A stretch of DNA of 64,000 nt from positions 31,498-95,497 of the forward strand of contig VXSP01000014.1 of NCBI GenBank assembly GCA_009837885.1, given 5' to 3'. Source of the stretch: Holophagales bacterium (GTDB taxonomy: Bacteria; Acidobacteriota; Thermoanaerobaculia; Multivoradales; Multivoraceae). The position numbers were made by a program, and so were the translations under genes. This document shows, one piece after another, positions 21,216 through 28,933 of the stretch; positions within the stretch are counted from its first letter, which is position 1; every line of letters starts with the position of its first letter. The notes beneath the pieces were generated by a model. The model was not told the DNA's origin. It searched no databases and saw nothing but the letters and a program-made list of their open reading frames with translations.

Positions 21216-23612
21216 ATGGCCCAGAACCCGGTAGACGAGCAGGCGGACGCGATCTCGCTGCCCGACGTCCTGCCGGTGTTGCCGCTCAAGGACGCGGTCA
21301 TCTTCCCCTACATCATCCTGCCGCTCTCGATCAGTCGCGACCCGAGCATGCTCGCGGTCGAGGACGCGCTGAACGGCGACCGCATCATCCTGCTCGCCCC
21401 CCAGCGCGACGGATCGATCGAGGCGCCGGCGGAGGACGACCTCCACGAGATCGGCACAGCGGCCCAGATCATGCGGATGCTGAAGCTGCCCGACGGCCGG
21501 GTGCGGATCCTGATCCAGGGTCTCGCCAGGGCTCGCCTGCGCTACCTGAGCCAGACCGAGCCCTTCCTTCGCGCCCGCGTCGAAGAGGTGGACGAGGCCG
21601 GCGAACCTCACCACGGACTCGAGGCGGAGGCGCTCGTGCGCAGCGTCAAGGAGGGTCTCGAAACCGCCGTCAACCTGGGCAAGGACATCTCCTCCGAGGT
21701 CATGATGATCGCCGCGAATCTCGATCATCCAGGCCGGCTGGCGGACCTGGCCGCCAGCAACCTCGACCTGCGGGCGGACGAGGCCCAGCTCGTGCTGGAG
21801 ACGACGACGCCCATACCGCGGCTGCGGAAGGTGGGCGACCTGCTGACCCGGGAGATCGAACTCCTCAGCATGCAGCAGCGGATCTCCGCCCAGGCCCGGA
21901 GCGAGATGGACCGCAGCCAGCGCGAGTACTTTCTTCGCCAGCAGCAGCGCGCGATCCTGGACGAACTCGGCGAAGGCGACGATCTCCACGGCGACATCGA
22001 ACGGTACGTGAGCGCCGTCGAGGAGAAGGGCCTGAGCGAGGAGGCGGCGGCGGAAGTTGAACGACAGGTCAGGCGGCTCGAGCGAAGCTCTCCCGACAGC
22101 GCCGAGAACGCGACGATCCGCACCCACCTGGACTGGTTGACCGGCCTCCCGTGGTCGACCCTGAGCGAGGATCGAATCGACCTCGACCGGGCCCGCACCG
22201 TGCTCGATGAAGACCACTACGACCTGGACCGGGTCAAGGAGCGGATCCTCGAGTACCTGGCGGTCCGACGGCTCAAGCCGGACGCCAAGGGTCCGATCCT
22301 CTGCCTGGTCGGCCCCCCGGGGGTCGGCAAAACGTCGCTCGGCCGTTCCATCGCGCGCGCAATCGATCGCAAGTTCGTCCGCATTTCGCTCGGCGGCGTC
22401 CGCGACGAGGGAGAGATCCGCGGCCACCGGCGCACCTACGTCGGTTCGTTGCCGGGTCGCGTCATCCAGGGCCTGAATCAGGCCGGCACCAGCAATCCCG
22501 TCTTCATGCTCGACGAAATCGACAAACTGGGCGCCGACTACCGGGGCGATCCGGCTTCCGCGCTGCTGGAAGTGCTGGATCCCGAACAGAACTCGACCTT
22601 CAGGGACCACTACCTGGGAGTCGAGTACGACCTTTCGCGCGTGTTGTTCATCGCCACGGCCAATCTGCTCGAACCCATTCAGCCCGCTTTCCTCGACCGT
22701 CTCGAGGTGCTGCGACTCTCCGGCTACACCGAAGACGAGAAAGTACTGATCGCGCGCCGCCACCTGTTGCCAAAAGCCACGGACGAGAACGGCCTGCCGG
22801 CCGGCGCCCTGACCATCACGACCCCCGCGCTCCGCGGCCTCATTCGCGGCTACACCAAGGAAGCCGGCGTGCGCAATCTCGAACGCGAACTCGCAACTCT
22901 CTGCCGGAAGGCGGCCGTGCGAGTGGCACGGGGAGACGGCCGGGAACTGAAAGTAACGCCGGCCCGATTGAAGAAGCTGGTCGGGCAACCGCGTCACTTC
23001 AGCGAGGAACTGCTCGACCGCGACCGGATCGGCGTGGCTACCGGACTCGCCTGGACCGCAGCCGGCGGCGACCTCATGCTGATCGAAGTCGCGGCGCCGA
23101 AGGGCAGAGGCAAACTGATCCTCACCGGTCAACTCGGCGACGTCATGAAGGAGTCGGCACAGGCCGCGCTGAGCTGCGCCCGCACGACCTACGCCGGGGC
23201 TCCGGGAGCGGGAGGGCCCGATTTCTTCCGTAACCACGACCTCCACATTCATGTCCCCGCCGGTTCCGTACCGAAGGACGGTCCGTCGGCGGGCGTCACG
23301 ATTGCCGCCGCCATCGTCTCCGTCTGCAGCGGGCGCATGATCGATCACAAGGTCGCGATGACCGGCGAGATCACGCTGCGCGGCGAAGTGCTTCCCGTCG
23401 GCGGTCTCAAGGAGAAGCTGCTCGCCGCGCGCGGAGCCGGTATTCGCAAGGTCGTCCTCCCGGAACGAAACCGGCGGGATCTTCCGGAGATACCGGCCGC
23501 GGTGACGCGAGGTCTTGAACTCCTGTTCGTCGAACATGTCGATCAGGTCCTCGAAGCCGCGTTGCTCGACCCGGAGCACCAGCGGTCATGGCCGGCGGCG
23601 AAGACCGGCTGA
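21216..23612 (+). CDS. lon: ATP-dependent protease Lon (endopeptidase La)
   Basis: LON N-domain, GPPGVGKTS Walker A, PKDGPSAG catalytic Ser and KxxAA Lys motifs. Confidence 0.95.
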
Positions 23613-24577: not shown

Positions 24578-24647
24578 GCGCGGCAGAAATCCGGAATCCG
24601 GCGCTACGCGCCTGCCGACCCGGTTTCTGCCGCGCTGACACACCCGG

Positions 24648-25571
24648 TCAGCGATTGAGCGTGACGGTGATCGGCTGGTCCAGCTTCTGCAGCACCAGGC
24701 TCACCTGGGCCTCGAGCGCCGCCAGCCTTGCCTCCACGCTGCCGGCCGCCGCAGCCGCCGGTTGGCGCCTCACCTTGGCGGCTCTCGCCTTTCGCTTCCT
24801 CCGCACCGGCGTCTTCGCCGCCGCCGCAACCTTGGCCTTCGGCTTCCGACCGCGCCTGCTCTGGGAGCGAAGCTCGCGGAACACCGCCACCGCCTCCGGG
24901 TGGTAGCGCCGCTTGCGGCCCTCGCCCTCGTGCGGTATCCGATCGCCGAACAACTTGAGGTAACGCTGCAGCGTCGGGCCGGAGATGCCCGTCTGCTGAC
25001 CGATCGCCGTAAGCGTCAGGAGCTTGGGAGCGGCTGCCGCAGGCTTCGCCGCGGCCCGCGCCTTGCGCTTCTTTCGAGCGGGCGACTTGGCCGCCGGCGC
25101 CGCCTTCGGCTTGCGACCAGGCTTGCTCTCCGCCCGGAGTTCGCGGAACACCGCCACGGAATTCGGGTGGTAGCGTCGCTTCCGACCCTCGCCCTCGTGC
25201 GGTATCCGATCGCCGAACAGCCGGACGTAACGCTGCAACGTCGGATAGGAGATGCCGGTCTGCTGACCGATGCTGGACAGCGTCAACAGGGCCGGACCGC
25301 CTGCCGCGCCCCTCGCTTGGGTTCCCGCCGCTTGCGTCGCGGTCTTCTTCCGTCCCGCGCCCCGACGCTTCGTCGACCGTTCGTTCTTGAACGCCTTGAA
25401 CTCCCTGACCGCCGCCACCCGATACCGCTGCCTGCGACCCTCGCCCTCCGACGAGATCCGGTCCTGGTACAGCTTCTTGTACCGCAGCGCCGTCGCCATC
25501 GAAACACCGGCCCGGCCAGCCACTTCGCCCAACGTCAACAGTTTCTTTCTTCCAGCAGCCGCTGCACTCAC
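24648..25571 (-). CDS. Basic DNA-binding protein with three tandem MerR/excisionase-like HTH modules joined by AT-hook/histone-H1-like lysine/alanine-rich linkers; C-terminal short coiled coil
   Basis: Three copies of LLTL..IG..TGIS..TLQRY..LFGDRI..EGEGR.RRY....VAVFRELR, separated by RGRKPK and AKPAAAK-rich stretches. Repeats 2 and 3 (aa 93-147 and aa 182-236, period ~89 aa) are encoded by near-identical ~165-bp DNA repeats; repeat 1 is a more divergent copy. GTG start with AAGGAG RBS 6 nt upstream. Confidence 0.75.
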   Translation of the reverse strand: MSAAAAGRKKLLTLGEVAGRAGVSMATALRYKKLYQDRISSEGEGRRQRYRVAAVREFKAFKNERSTKRRGAGRKKTATQAAGTQARGAAGGPALLTLSSIGQQTGISYPTLQRYVRLFGDRIPHEGEGRKRRYHPNSVAVFRELRAESKPGRKPKAAPAAKSPARKKRKARAAAKPAAAAPKLLTLTAIGQQTGISGPTLQRYLKLFGDRIPHEGEGRKRRYHPEAVAVFRELRSQSRRGRKPKAKVAAAAKTPVRRKRKARAAKVRRQPAAAAAGSVEARLAALEAQVSLVLQKLDQPITVTLNR

Positions 25572-25687
25572 GAAGTTCTCCTTATCCCGCCCTGTGGCGT
25601 GCCGGTCCGTATCCCTTCCGGGAAGTTACAATCGCAGCGCGACGATAGCAGAAGAACCGACCTGACTGCGCGTAGCACGAATTTGAA

Positions 25688-28600
25688 TCAGTCTTCGGTC
25701 AGAGGTCCGTAGTTCAGCTTACGCACCAGGTACGACAGGGCCTGCCGGCTGATGCCAAGAGCGCGCGCCGCCTTCGCCTGGTTGCCGCCGGATTCTTCAA
25801 GCGCCTTGCCGATCAGTCGACGCCGGTACTGCTCCATCTTCCAGTGGTAGCCGCTTTGCTTAGGCCCGGCTTCCTCGACCGGTTCTTCCGGCAGCCCCAG
25901 GTTCTCAACCGAGATCTCGGAACGCTCGGCAAGCGCCACCGCCCCATCGATCGCGTTCTTCAACTCCCTGACATTGCCGGGCCATGAGTAGTTGCGAATC
26001 CGCGCGCGCGCCTTGTCGCTGAACTTCAGGTCCTGTCCGAGCTGACCGGAGTTTTCGAGGAAGTGCTGCGCAAGCAACATCACGTCCTCATCGCGCTCGC
26101 GCAATGGAGGCGCCTCCACGTAAGCCACCCTGAGCCGGTAGTAAAGATCCTGGCGGAACTCGCCGGCCCTCACCATCGCGGCCAGATCCTTGTGGGTTGC
26201 AGAGACGAGCCGAAAGTCGAGCCGCCGGGTGCGGCTCTCACCGACGCGTCGCATCTCGCCCTCCTGCAGGAGGCGCAGGAGCATCCCCTGGGCCGCCCAC
26301 GGCAGCTCTCCGATCTCGTCGAGAAAGACGGTGCCGCCGTCCGCGCTCTCGAACACTCCCACCCGGTCAGCGTGGGCGCCGGTGAACGCGCCCCGACGGT
26401 GGCCGAACAGCTCGGACAGGAGCAGACCGTCCGGCAACGCCGCGCAGTTCACCGCCAGCCAGGGGCGGGAGGACCGAGCGCTCGACCAGTGGAGCTGGCG
26501 CGCCAGGAGTTCCTTGCCGGTCCCCGACTCGCCGAGAATCAACACCGGCAGATCGTGAGCCGCGAACTTCTCGATGCGGGTCTGAACATCCAGCAGAGCC
26601 TTGCTCTTTCCCACCATTCCGGAGGTAGACGGCCTCCTGGGCTCCGCCAGCTCGGAAGCTCCGTGTCGGCGGCGGCTCGAGGCGGGCAGGCGGGTCGCCA
26701 CCGCGGCCGCCAACGCACGGGCAGGTTCATCGATTCCCCTTGCACTAAGCACGAGTCGTCCCGCCTCCGCATCGACCGCGAACCGGTCGGAGCCACCGGG
26801 ACCCTCGAGCAGGACTTCCCCCTGCGCATCCAGAGCGTCAAACCCTCCCGGGGGGCCATGCACCGCCAGTCTTGCCTCCGGGTGACCGGCCGCGGCCATC
26901 AGGATCCGATAGGCGTCCGCATCGGGGTCGGGCGTGGCCAGGAAGAGGCGAAGCGCCAACCAGGGACCCGTGCGCGCCCCATCCACACGCTGGACGAGGG
27001 CTTCGGCGCCGACTGCCGAGAGGATGCGCGCGGCCGCGGCCACCAGACCGACGGGAACCGTCTCGACGCCGAGACAGACCAGGTCGTGAACAGTGAGCGC
27101 GGCGCGGAAGGGGTCTTGTGCCTCGATTCGCCGCCAGTCCGCGACGCCCGGCATCCGGCCCTCGCCGACCGCTTCCCAGAGTCCCTCCTGTGCCGTTCCG
27201 GCCGTGATCGCACGCGCCTGGTCGCCGAGTCCGGCGAGCAGCAGCAGCGGCGCCAGGTCGTCCACTTCCGCCGGCGTCCAGGCGGCAAGGTGCCGTTCGA
27301 GCGCCTCAAAGAGTTCCTCCGCCGCCTCATCGATACGTCCGAGATGGACCAGTGCGCGAGCCGAAAGCAGACGCAACGAGCGGAGCTGACGCCACCCGGA
27401 TCGCCTCCCGCTCAGATTCTCCAGGGCGGTTTCGCAGCACTCCAGCGCCGATGCCCAGTGGCCCTGCGCCAGGAAGAGGCGCGCTTCCAGCAGGCGTGCC
27501 TCGACGACTCCAGGGGCGCTCCCCGCCATCAGGCTCTCCCGACGCAGGTTCTCGATCGTCTCGGCGACTCCCGTGAACCGTCCGGTTCGAATCCGGATCT
27601 CCGCCAGCTTCCCGTGCGCGGCGGCTCTCCCGGCAGGTCCGTCGCAACGCCGGAACAGAGAGGCCGCGATGCGTGCCGCGCGCTCGGCGCCACGGAGGTC
27701 GTTCACCGCCAATCGAACCGTCGCCAACTCGTTGTACAACCCGGCCCGCTCGTACAAGGGAAGCTGCTCCCTGAGGCGTCTGAGACCAGCCGCCAGCAAC
27801 CGCTCCGCCTCTCTGAACCGACCGTTCGCCGCGGCGAGCCGAGCCCTCGCACCAAGCTCCATCCAGGGTTGCGGGTCGCCCCAGCGTTCCGGCTCCCTGA
27901 CCGCGGGTTCCAGCAGGCCGGCCATTGCGTCAAGCTCACCGAGTTCCCACTTCGCCAGGGCGCACAGGACTCGACCAGGCGCCGCCTGGGGACCGACCGC
28001 GACGTCGAGCACCCTCTCCGACCAGCGTCCGATCTGATCCGAACGTCCCGCGGCCGCGTGGATTCCGATTGCCAACTCACACTGTTCGAGTGCGCGACGG
28101 CCCGAGAGCGCCCGGTTCTCCAGTGTGCTCAGCGTGCGACGCGCGGCGGCGGTCCGGCCCAACCGAAGCTGAGCCCGGAGGCGGGCGAGGAGGTCGTCCG
28201 TTCGCCTTGACTCCTTCACCAGCTTCAGCACGGCTTCGAAGCGTCCTTCCTCAAGGAGGAGCCGCGCCAGCGCCGACCGGTCTTCCGGCGTCTCGGGCGG
28301 CCGCAATTCGGAGTCGGCGTCGGTGACGCGTTGCCAGTACGACCGCGCAGCCACGCCGCCCGCGGCAATCTCCCGACGTTCGTCGCCCTCCATCGCCGCC
28401 AGCACCCGCCGCCACCGCGATTGCCCGGCAACCGCCGCCCTCTCGCCGTCCCGACTCGCCAGGACGGCGAACAGGGAGGAGCGCGCGGCCTCGAACTTGT
28501 GACCCCACAGGAAGGGTGCCCGAGCCAGGATGTCGGCGACCATCCGGTTGGCGGACATCGGTAGCAGTTCGTCGCGCCAGGTCTCGAAGAGGGGCCGGAG

Positions 28601-28933
28601 CACCGCCCGAACAGCGCTTCGGCCGGGCGCTCCCTCGCTTCCGAACAGGAGCACGACGAGTTGCCTCATCAGGGCCTGAGGCAGTCGGTCGTCTCGCGCG
28701 CGCTGCACCAGCCTCGGAGGAACCCGGAGGACGCCGTCCGTATCGACGCGGAGATCTTGCCAGGCCTCGAGCCGCCAACCGGCCGCTCGCACATGAGCCA
28801 GCAGGGCCGCTCCCTGAAGCAGGAATGCTGCCCGGTCACGGTCGGTCGCGACGATCTCGTTCAGATCGGTGGCCCCCGCGCCTTCGGGAACTGGCTGAAG
28901 CGCCTGGTGACGGATGCGAAGGACGCGAGTCAT
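25688..28933 (-). CDS. Sigma-54-dependent transcriptional activator (bEBP, Fis-type C-terminal HTH) with ~750-aa N-terminal TPR-like/helical-repeat sensor region
   Basis: C-terminus GESGTGKELLARQLH, GAFTGA, ESELFGH-like ELFGHRRGAFTG, and AARALGISRQALSYLVRKL HTH; N-terminal region is Ala/Leu/Arg-rich helical repeats; ATGA overlap with aroA. Confidence 0.85.
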   Translation of the reverse strand: MTRVLRIRHQALQPVPEGAGATDLNEIVATDRDRAAFLLQGAALLAHVRAAGWRLEAWQDLRVDTDGVLRVPPRLVQRARDDRLPQALMRQLVVLLFGSEGAPGRSAVRAVLRPLFETWRDELLPMSANRMVADILARAPFLWGHKFEAARSSLFAVLASRDGERAAVAGQSRWRRVLAAMEGDERREIAAGGVAARSYWQRVTDADSELRPPETPEDRSALARLLLEEGRFEAVLKLVKESRRTDDLLARLRAQLRLGRTAAARRTLSTLENRALSGRRALEQCELAIGIHAAAGRSDQIGRWSERVLDVAVGPQAAPGRVLCALAKWELGELDAMAGLLEPAVREPERWGDPQPWMELGARARLAAANGRFREAERLLAAGLRRLREQLPLYERAGLYNELATVRLAVNDLRGAERAARIAASLFRRCDGPAGRAAAHGKLAEIRIRTGRFTGVAETIENLRRESLMAGSAPGVVEARLLEARLFLAQGHWASALECCETALENLSGRRSGWRQLRSLRLLSARALVHLGRIDEAAEELFEALERHLAAWTPAEVDDLAPLLLLAGLGDQARAITAGTAQEGLWEAVGEGRMPGVADWRRIEAQDPFRAALTVHDLVCLGVETVPVGLVAAAARILSAVGAEALVQRVDGARTGPWLALRLFLATPDPDADAYRILMAAAGHPEARLAVHGPPGGFDALDAQGEVLLEGPGGSDRFAVDAEAGRLVLSARGIDEPARALAAAVATRLPASSRRRHGASELAEPRRPSTSGMVGKSKALLDVQTRIEKFAAHDLPVLILGESGTGKELLARQLHWSSARSSRPWLAVNCAALPDGLLLSELFGHRRGAFTGAHADRVGVFESADGGTVFLDEIGELPWAAQGMLLRLLQEGEMRRVGESRTRRLDFRLVSATHKDLAAMVRAGEFRQDLYYRLRVAYVEAPPLRERDEDVMLLAQHFLENSGQLGQDLKFSDKARARIRNYSWPGNVRELKNAIDGAVALAERSEISVENLGLPEEPVEEAGPKQSGYHWKMEQYRRRLIGKALEESGGNQAKAARALGISRQALSYLVRKLNYGPLTED

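Follow-up and report, generated by a model that had tools for sequence, protein, structure and literature searches.

A 64,000-nt stretch of Holophagales DNA (contig VXSP01000014.1 of assembly GCA_009837885.1; here called the window) carries on its minus strand, at 24648..25571, a complete gene of 307 codons plus stop. Its product, here named the multi-HTH protein, is made up of three winged helix-turn-helix (wHTH) modules with basic linkers and has a coiled coil at its C-terminus. An open reading frame (ORF) at this position had been proposed in a preliminary description of the same DNA, and both its limits and its product of 307 amino acids (aa) were borne out, with the minus strand as the coding strand. 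The orthologs were 56-100% identical, and their substitutions were biased to the third codon position, with counts at positions 1/2/3 of 9/6/32 in the comparison with the ortholog at locus L009 and 47/33/150 in that with L013; this excess indicates that the minus-strand frame is under purifying selection. As the window has a G+C content of ~70%, long shadow ORFs overlap the gene on the plus strand.

The gene starts with GTG at 25571, and a Shine-Dalgarno sequence (AAGGAG, 25578..25583, minus strand), which is kept in orthologs, lies 6 nt upstream. Not only the Shine-Dalgarno sequence and the start codon but also the first ten codons and the N-terminus MSAAAAGRKKLLTL were kept across orthologous loci. 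The identical protein is found at NCBI as a 296-aa "hypothetical protein" from a Holophagales metagenome-assembled genome (MAG) (P0001), modeled 11 codons shorter at the start. This model begins too late. The 307-aa chain has a mass of 33 kDa, a pI of 11.8 and a net charge of +54. One ortholog (L021:7905-9112) seems to be frameshifted in module 3 and to run in two frames, as a result of either an assembly error or pseudogene formation.

Three modules of 52 aa were delimited at aa 11-62, 95-146 and 184-235. A hidden Markov model (HMM) of the module scored 90-111 bits with each copy in the window and 84-116 bits in full-length three-module homologs, and no second carrier of the module was found when it was run against all other ORFs of the 64-kb window. 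Module 1 (25386..25541, minus strand; LLTLGEVAGRAGVSMATALRYKK...EGEGRRQRY) is a divergent wHTH which was recognized by the module HMM and in the predicted structure, and on its own it stayed below the Pfam cut-offs of MerR_1 and HTH_17. Module 2 (25134..25289, minus strand) reached 22.3 bits with MerR_1 (cut-off 21.6), and module 3 (24867..25022, minus strand), an old duplicate of module 2, reached 21.7 bits. At the protein level, modules 2 and 3 were 87% identical to each other, and module 1 was 42-46% identical to either of them. The whole protein exceeded both Pfam cut-offs, with 41 bits for MerR_1 (2e-10) and 32.1 bits for HTH_17 (1.4e-7; cut-off 27), and both families were also matched by 38 of the 48 modules sampled from relatives. 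Among the PHROGs, the protein matched phrog_66, "excisionase and transcriptional regulator" (1.3e-11). No effector- or signal-binding domain was detected in the Pfam and NCBIfam scans of the 307-aa protein, the remainder of which is low-complexity linker.

An AlphaFold2 model built on 46 homologs contained three compact modules with predicted local distance difference test (pLDDT) values above 90, each in the order strand, helix, helix, β-hairpin wing, helix. Values below 50 were confined to stretches of the linkers (aa 76-90, 156-179 and 245-271), and the predicted template modeling score of 0.29 implies that the heads have no fixed mutual packing. The sole long helix (aa 273-297) lies 37 residues past module 3, and no coiled coil directly follows any of the DNA-binding domains. 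When the model was compared with the PDB using Foldseek, nearly all matches were MerR-type DNA-binding domains, namely those of SoxR, CarH, RacA, Pukovnik Xis, GlnR, RdfS, TraN and BldC; the whole-query E-values were weak, while probabilities were 0.82-1.0 and the matches were mutually consistent. SoxR and CarH came first by E-value. RacA (PDB 5i41/5i44) gave the best superposition, with a root-mean-square deviation (rmsd) of 2.0 Å over 54 residues (range 2.0-2.4 Å, probability 0.93-1.0), and BldC (6ama/6amk; probability 0.82-0.92, rmsd 2.5-3.1 Å) showed the highest identity among the structural matches, 33-38%. The three tandem MerR/excisionase-type modules of the preliminary description were supported by Pfam, PHROG and Foldseek. 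The 307-aa protein very probably binds DNA through three MerR-like heads.

The linkers between the heads are strongly basic. Linker 1 (aa 63-94; 25290..25385, minus strand) carries a net charge of +7, and in the AlphaFold2 model its first residues prolong helix 3 of module 1 as far as aa 72; only aa 76-90 fall below a pLDDT of 50. Linker 2 (aa 147-183; 25023..25133, minus strand; net +12) begins with SKPGRKPK and continues as a lysine/alanine/proline (K/A/P)-rich sequence with SPARKKRKAR, and linker 3 (aa 236-271; 24759..24866, minus strand; net +16) has SRRGRKPK and then TPVRRKRKAR. Directly behind helix 3 of modules 2 and 3, a segment S-x-S-(K/R)-x-G-R-K-P-K was conserved, followed by an (S/T)P-x-RKKRKAR cluster. 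Across orthologs the linkers were composed of 29% alanine, 20% lysine, 12% arginine and 12% proline. This composition, together with the long stretches of pLDDT below 50, bears out an earlier view of them as K/A/P-rich, H1-like tails, with the qualification that the likeness to H1 is compositional only, the globular Linker_histone domain of Pfam being absent from the protein. The AT-hook, which had been read into the same linkers, was not upheld in the strict sense: the core RGRP occurred neither in the 307-aa protein nor in any of 38 three-module orthologs, where GRKPK stands in its place, and the query linker gave no match to Pfam AT_hook (PF02178, cut-off 17.4 bits). Of 39 two-module orthologs, 35 had an RGRP core (KRGRPRK) behind module 1, and linkers of two-module orthologs scored 12.7-15.1 bits with the same profile.

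The C-terminal region (aa 272-307; 24651..24758, minus strand) consists of a heptad helix at aa 273-297 (VEARLAALEAQVSLVLQKL) and a conserved tail, QPITVTLNR. The helix was predicted with a pLDDT of ~90 and shows an a/d pattern over 3.5-4 heptads within the last ~35 residues, in agreement with the short coiled coil originally described. The tail motif P-(I/L/M)-x-V-T-(L/I)-x-R ended all 78 genome orthologs inspected as well as several metagenomic relatives, and in these proteins, too, it comes with a coiled coil. In several orthologs (P0077, P0078, P0081, P0083 and L034:7932-9485), the final basic linker is set apart from the zipper by long acidic, repetitive inserts (VRDQ-EAGP-ETRGEVE or DDSGDD), which recall the acidic region of HMGA and CarD tails. 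In several lineages, long acidic repeats of the P-E-E-A-A-A type precede the zipper.

The duplication of modules 2 and 3 is also visible in the DNA. Copy A (24835..25062; module 3 plus flanks) extends over 228 nt and was 78% identical to copy B (25102..25329; module 2 plus flanks), which lies 267 nt from it; the duplicated unit is one module with its linker, equal to 89 aa and a 267-nt period. Repeats of ~165 bp had previously been placed at 24864-25028 and 25131-25295 and attributed to recent internal duplication. The placement was right, yet the identity, described as high, was overstated (80% over 165 nt and 78% over 228 nt), and the duplication turned out to be old. Across 36 three-module orthologs, identity was 0.90 between modules 2 and 0.89 between modules 3 and fell to 0.76 between modules 2 and 3, and diagnostic residues were fixed by position (Tyr15 versus Gly15, Ser44 versus Ala44). 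The modules thus group by position, which places the duplication before the radiation of the three-module clade. Concerted evolution of the two modules was ruled out by the same clustering, which follows position and not genome. On the evidence of these sequences, modules 2 and 3 both derive from an ancestral second module. A metagenomic variant with 97% identity (P0002) has the first helix and the start of the recognition helix of module 3 scrambled (TAMLCISVSSFPTLQRYVLLF versus TAIGQQTGISGPTLQRYLKLF), probably through a local sequencing or assembly error.

A protein search returned 815 relatives, whose source names were limited to "hypothetical protein" or automatic "MerR regulator" and "AlpA" labels. 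Among the best 120 of them, 80 had three modules, 39 had two and one was a single-module fragment. A scan of one genome per species yielded 205 loci, and the 78 listed were used for synteny and taxonomy. All 78 were from Acidobacteriota, nearly all labeled Thermoanaerobaculia, Ca. Multivorans or Multivoradales, many of them in chromosome-level assemblies. The number of modules tracked phylogeny: most Thermoanaerobaculia had two, the listed Multivorans/Multivoraceae MAGs and their close relatives had three, and a single genome (locus L031) had four. When 1.84 billion representative proteins were searched exhaustively with a profile, 508 relatives were obtained at an E-value of at most 0.001; these had one to five modules, as in P0122, which has five and retains the same coiled coil and tail. 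The evolution of copy number that the preliminary description had suggested looking for was therefore found, with two, three and four modules in genomes and one to five in metagenomes.

Several of these relatives deserve separate mention. At L031 (L031:7851-9491; OX638294.1, an uncultured Thermoanaerobaculia chromosome), modules 3 and 4 with their linkers were identical at 51 of 52 positions, a truly recent tandem duplication, and the coiled coil is preceded by acidic P-E-E-A-A-A repeats that together extend over well more than 100 aa. The same head is used in a separate architecture by three metagenomic proteins (P0202, P0203 and P0231), in which a single module is accompanied by an N-terminal domain of ~150 aa that is unrelated, by an extended acidic stretch and, at the C-terminus, by a coiled coil of another kind. 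In P0121 (853 aa, metagenomic), four near-identical heads of the module 1 type are joined to a large unrelated N-terminal region, which may reflect a genuine fusion or a gene-calling artifact.

Immediately upstream of the multi-HTH gene, a gene at 25688-28933 (minus strand) encodes a 1081-aa activator with tetratricopeptide repeats (TPR), a sigma-54 AAA+ domain and HTH_8. The two genes are co-oriented and separated by 116 nt, so their adjacency had been described correctly. In this activator, an N-terminal TPR/MalT-like region of ~750 aa takes the place of a receiver or GAF/PAS domain. In most loci examined the activator gene is conserved next to aroA, with identities of 35-89%. The order common to most of the 78 loci was acyltransferase, Mrp/ApbC-type ATPase, metallophosphoesterase, aroA, TPR sigma-54 activator, multi-HTH gene, convergent thiL and Lon, and it held even where the multi-HTH ortholog was only ~40% identical. 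In distant lineages whose gap was examined (L049:5600-7900, L057, L064, L071, L073, L050 and L074), a pair of ATP-binding cassette (ABC) permease genes of the Dpp/Opp type stood between the activator and the multi-HTH gene. An obligatory operon of these two genes was ruled out by such insertions in several lineages. The activator was missing from several loci, and adjacency to thiL and Lon was at least as conserved. No partner gene was conserved beside the multi-HTH gene among the loci examined, no integrase-family match was found among the scanned neighbors, and no relatives of the protein were found in the phage and plasmid collections searched. Housekeeping synteny across the class indicates a vertically inherited core gene, mostly in single copy, and not a part of a mobile element; the multi-HTH gene is a syntenic core gene of the class Thermoanaerobaculia. 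A rare paralog was noted in one Multivoradales MAG (CBDFNS01), which has two copies of a two-module gene, one syntenic and one elsewhere (L060 and L068). At locus L003 (1897-7614), the place of the aroA/activator block upstream is taken by genes for a DNA methylase and for a helicase-like protein of superfamily 1 (1528 aa; AAA_11/AAA_12), probably an inserted defense or restriction island.

The region between the activator and the multi-HTH gene contains a conserved 13-nt element, TTCTGCTATCGTC (25641..25653, minus strand), at a distance of ~65 nt from the start codon. This candidate promoter or operator was at least 90% conserved among three-module orthologs. It was retained at L003 despite the different upstream gene. 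No second copy was found elsewhere in the window, one copy being the chance expectation. The element could hold an extended -10 (TGcTATCGT) or an operator, and a sigma-70 consensus scan upstream of the gene called no promoter. A sigma-54 promoter at this place was rejected, the only match having three mismatches and no GG, with a window-wide count at chance level; a GG picked by eye is unconserved, and its spacing from the GC is 11 nt instead of 10 nt. Between the 13-nt element and the Shine-Dalgarno sequence, the 5′ leader contains a short palindrome that is conserved (CTTCCCGGAAGGG, 25595-25615, minus strand) and may form a hairpin in the leader or serve as a binding site.

At the other end, an inverted repeat with 17-nt arms that are 88% complementary was located by a repeat search between the convergent stops of the multi-HTH gene and thiL (24578..24635). 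Transcription of both genes may end at this repeat, which a simple terminator scan did not call. That scan gave three terminator-like matches, all on the plus strand, two of them inside the multi-HTH gene and one inside thiL, and these were disregarded. Beyond it, the thiL ORF, if read from its first possible start, begins 25 nt before the Lon stop (23588-23612), which would make a same-strand overlap if that start is used.

The multi-HTH protein was then set against known systems. It resembles BldC, Xis or RacA most, yet is outside each of these families. Like BldC, it has a MerR-like wHTH with neither an effector domain nor an adjoining MerR dimerization helix, and we propose that several heads sit side by side on DNA; unlike BldC, a single domain of 68 aa, it is 307 aa long, its heads are joined covalently by basic linkers of 28-46 aa, and it has a separate C-terminal coiled coil. 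Aligned with the BldC sequence by hhalign, the module profile gave an E-value of 1.5e-4 and a probability of 52%. The numbering of the BldC sequence used fits every residue named in PMC5859096. In the alignment, Arg30, Trp31 and Lys33 of BldC fell on an invariant Arg, an invariant Tyr and a near-invariant Lys of the multi-HTH modules, and the BldC wing His46-Arg47-Arg48-Tyr49 fell on K-R-R-Y. Arg30, Trp31, Lys33 and the wing residues Arg47 and Arg48 are DNA-contact residues of BldC, a pleiotropic regulator that reads 9-bp direct repeats and bends DNA by ~50 degrees (PMC5859096). Binding to such repeats is cooperative in the BldC family and involves an AT-rich minor groove. BldC protomers multimerize non-covalently, head to tail, through the hydrophobic residues Phe21, Trp31 and Leu43. 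At these positions the multi-HTH modules read Thr, Tyr and Glu, in a part of the alignment that is of low confidence near a 2-residue insertion, and the HEGEG wing stem has no hydrophobic residue. With the contact residues aligned and the Phe21/Trp31/Leu43 set not kept, the heads look competent for DNA binding like BldC, but not self-adhering.

RacA, the chromosome-anchoring protein of Bacillus subtilis, shares with the multi-HTH protein a MerR-like wHTH, a C-terminal coiled coil and the lack of an effector domain, but it has a single head and no basic linkers; it binds GC-rich inverted repeats as a symmetric dimer (PMC5859096). The NCBIfam RacA model spanned module 3, its linker and the coiled coil with 23.1 bits (6e-5), far below its cut-off of 165 bits. 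The classical MerR regulators (SoxR, CarH, CueR) have in common with our protein a wHTH above the Pfam MerR_1 cut-off; the multi-HTH protein differs in having three tandem heads, no antiparallel coiled coil directly behind the DNA-binding domain and no effector domain. The wHTH fold is also that of lambda and Pukovnik Xis, RdfS and pIP501 TraN, but these are encoded on mobile elements, whereas the multi-HTH gene is a chromosomal core gene without phage or plasmid relatives. Xis and RdfS build micro-filaments of wHTH units on DNA (PMC11963761). Myxococcus CarD offers a parallel to the linkers, having a disordered basic DNA-binding region, to which RGRP in two-module orthologs and the K/A/P-rich H1-like sequence in three-module orthologs correspond; its folded domain, however, is a Tudor-like module that binds RNA polymerase and not a wHTH, and the two proteins have no sequence relationship. 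Few bacterial proteins have RGRP motifs; those of CarD bind the minor groove, and in that protein HMGA-like and H1-like domains are functionally interchangeable (PMC8156234). In the literature we found no paper that links Thermoanaerobaculia with nucleoid proteins, or that describes tandem MerR-like plus AT-hook proteins or this family. The component parts are known; what is new here is the way in which MerR-like wHTHs are arrayed in tandem and combined with H1/HMGA-like linkers and a zipper at the end of the chain.

Three heads, no effector domain, an extreme charge, H1/HMGA-like linkers and the behavior of a core gene together lead us to read the multi-HTH protein as a lineage-specific, multivalent factor, either architectural and of the nucleoid-associated type or a pleiotropic regulator, a reading to which we give an even chance. 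We infer DNA binding itself, groove usage, dimerization and a genome-wide role along the following lines. The recognition helix of each head (PTLQRY-x-K) would enter the major groove, and the arginine-rich wing (GR-K/R-R/Q-RY) would touch the adjacent minor groove or the backbone. The S-x-S-(K/R)-x-GRKPK segment and the K/A/P-rich linkers would add non-specific contacts, probably in the minor groove, and neutralize charge. Disordered tethers of 28-46 residues could let the heads sit at several sites, on the same duplex or on different duplexes, and the C-terminal heptad helix could pair chains to give six or more heads per particle, a number that would favor bending, bridging or coating of DNA. 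Covalent tethers would thereby replace the non-covalent head-to-tail multimers of BldC and Xis, the array being hard-wired in one chain. Several points weigh against an architectural or pleiotropic factor. At 33 kDa the protein is larger than typical nucleoid proteins, and a sequence-specific regulator of the ordinary kind could just as well have this anatomy. As the protein has no RGRP core, minor-groove binding by its linkers is an analogy only. The likeness to BldC is weak by sequence (52% in hhalign), and PDB sequence searches with the whole protein and with the 48-module profile gave nothing significant (best E-values 0.056-0.6, to TetR/LacI HTH segments, CarH and RacA) and did not bring up BldC.

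The most serious competitor is a transcription factor of the conventional, sequence-specific type that would control a limited regulon and possibly its own gene. Its three heads would occupy adjacent direct-repeat half-sites, a covalent counterpart of the tandem binding of BldC or of response regulators, and its linkers would add only affinity. The recognition-helix residues are highly conserved per position (0.90 and 0.89) with fixed differences, as expected if each head reads something defined, the gene itself has the conserved 13-nt element upstream, and BldC, the closest structural match by identity, reads 9-bp direct repeats (PMC5859096). We regard such a regulator as possible but on balance doubtful: neither the upstream region nor the rest of the window yielded a repeated motif, the protein lacks an effector domain, and the extreme charge and H1-like linkers would be unusual for a dedicated regulator. 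As BldC is itself pleiotropic, the boundary between this explanation and an architectural role is blurred. A different role, that of a RacA-like adaptor for chromosome anchoring or segregation, whose heads would grip DNA and whose coiled coil and terminal P-I-T-V-T-L-x-R would dock on a polar or membrane partner, is suggested by the Foldseek superposition on the RacA DNA-binding domain (rmsd 2.0-2.4 Å, probability 0.93-1.0), by the weak NCBIfam match (6e-5) over module 3, linker and coiled coil, and by the tail motif in 78 of 78 genome orthologs inspected. It seems unlikely given the 23 bits against a cut-off of 165, the single-headed, symmetric-dimer nature of RacA (PMC5859096) and the lack of a conserved partner gene next door.

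Position next to the TPR sigma-54 enhancer-binding protein raises the idea of an IHF-like, dedicated DNA-bending cofactor of that activator: in most of the 78 loci examined, the activator gene precedes the multi-HTH gene in the same orientation, and a bend of ~50 degrees is known from BldC-type binding (PMC5859096). This we consider quite improbable, since an ABC-permease pair (distant lineages) or helicase and methylase genes (L003) intervene, the activator is missing from several loci, the multi-HTH gene has its own conserved upstream element and no sigma-54 promoter match, and adjacency to thiL and Lon is at least as conserved. The matches to HTH_17 and PHROG and the Foldseek hits to Xis and RdfS would also suit an excisionase or recombination directionality factor of an integrated element, but the class-wide housekeeping neighborhood, in which no integrase-family match was found among the scanned neighbors, and the absence of phage or plasmid matches effectively refute it by synteny. 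Equally hard to credit is a repeat produced by faulty assembly: the three-module structure recurs in 38 species-level genomes, many at chromosome level, and the repeats, ~80% identical, are too diverged for collapse or expansion; these independent genomes and the ~20% divergence of the copies make an artifact very unlikely.

Little is known of nucleoid-organizing proteins beyond the model phyla, and to our knowledge none has been characterized in Acidobacteria. On a bolder and tentative view, held with clearly less than even confidence, the multi-HTH protein would be the founding member of a class-specific bacterial chromatin protein, a "beads-on-a-string" of covalently fused BldC/Xis-type heads with HMGA-/H1-like linkers and a dimerizing, leucine-zipper-like tail, whose valency of 1-5 would be tuned by module duplications such as the recent one at L031. 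Even if the protein were an ordinary regulator, its gene would still be an unannotated, well-conserved marker of Thermoanaerobaculia. If it is an abundant architectural protein, tandem-tethered wHTHs of the MerR/BldC/Xis type would represent a new bacterial route to multivalent DNA binders, with eukaryote-like AT-hook or H1-like linkers swapped between lineages. In the natural series of one to five heads, evolution has already set up an experiment on the control of DNA bridging and compaction by valency.

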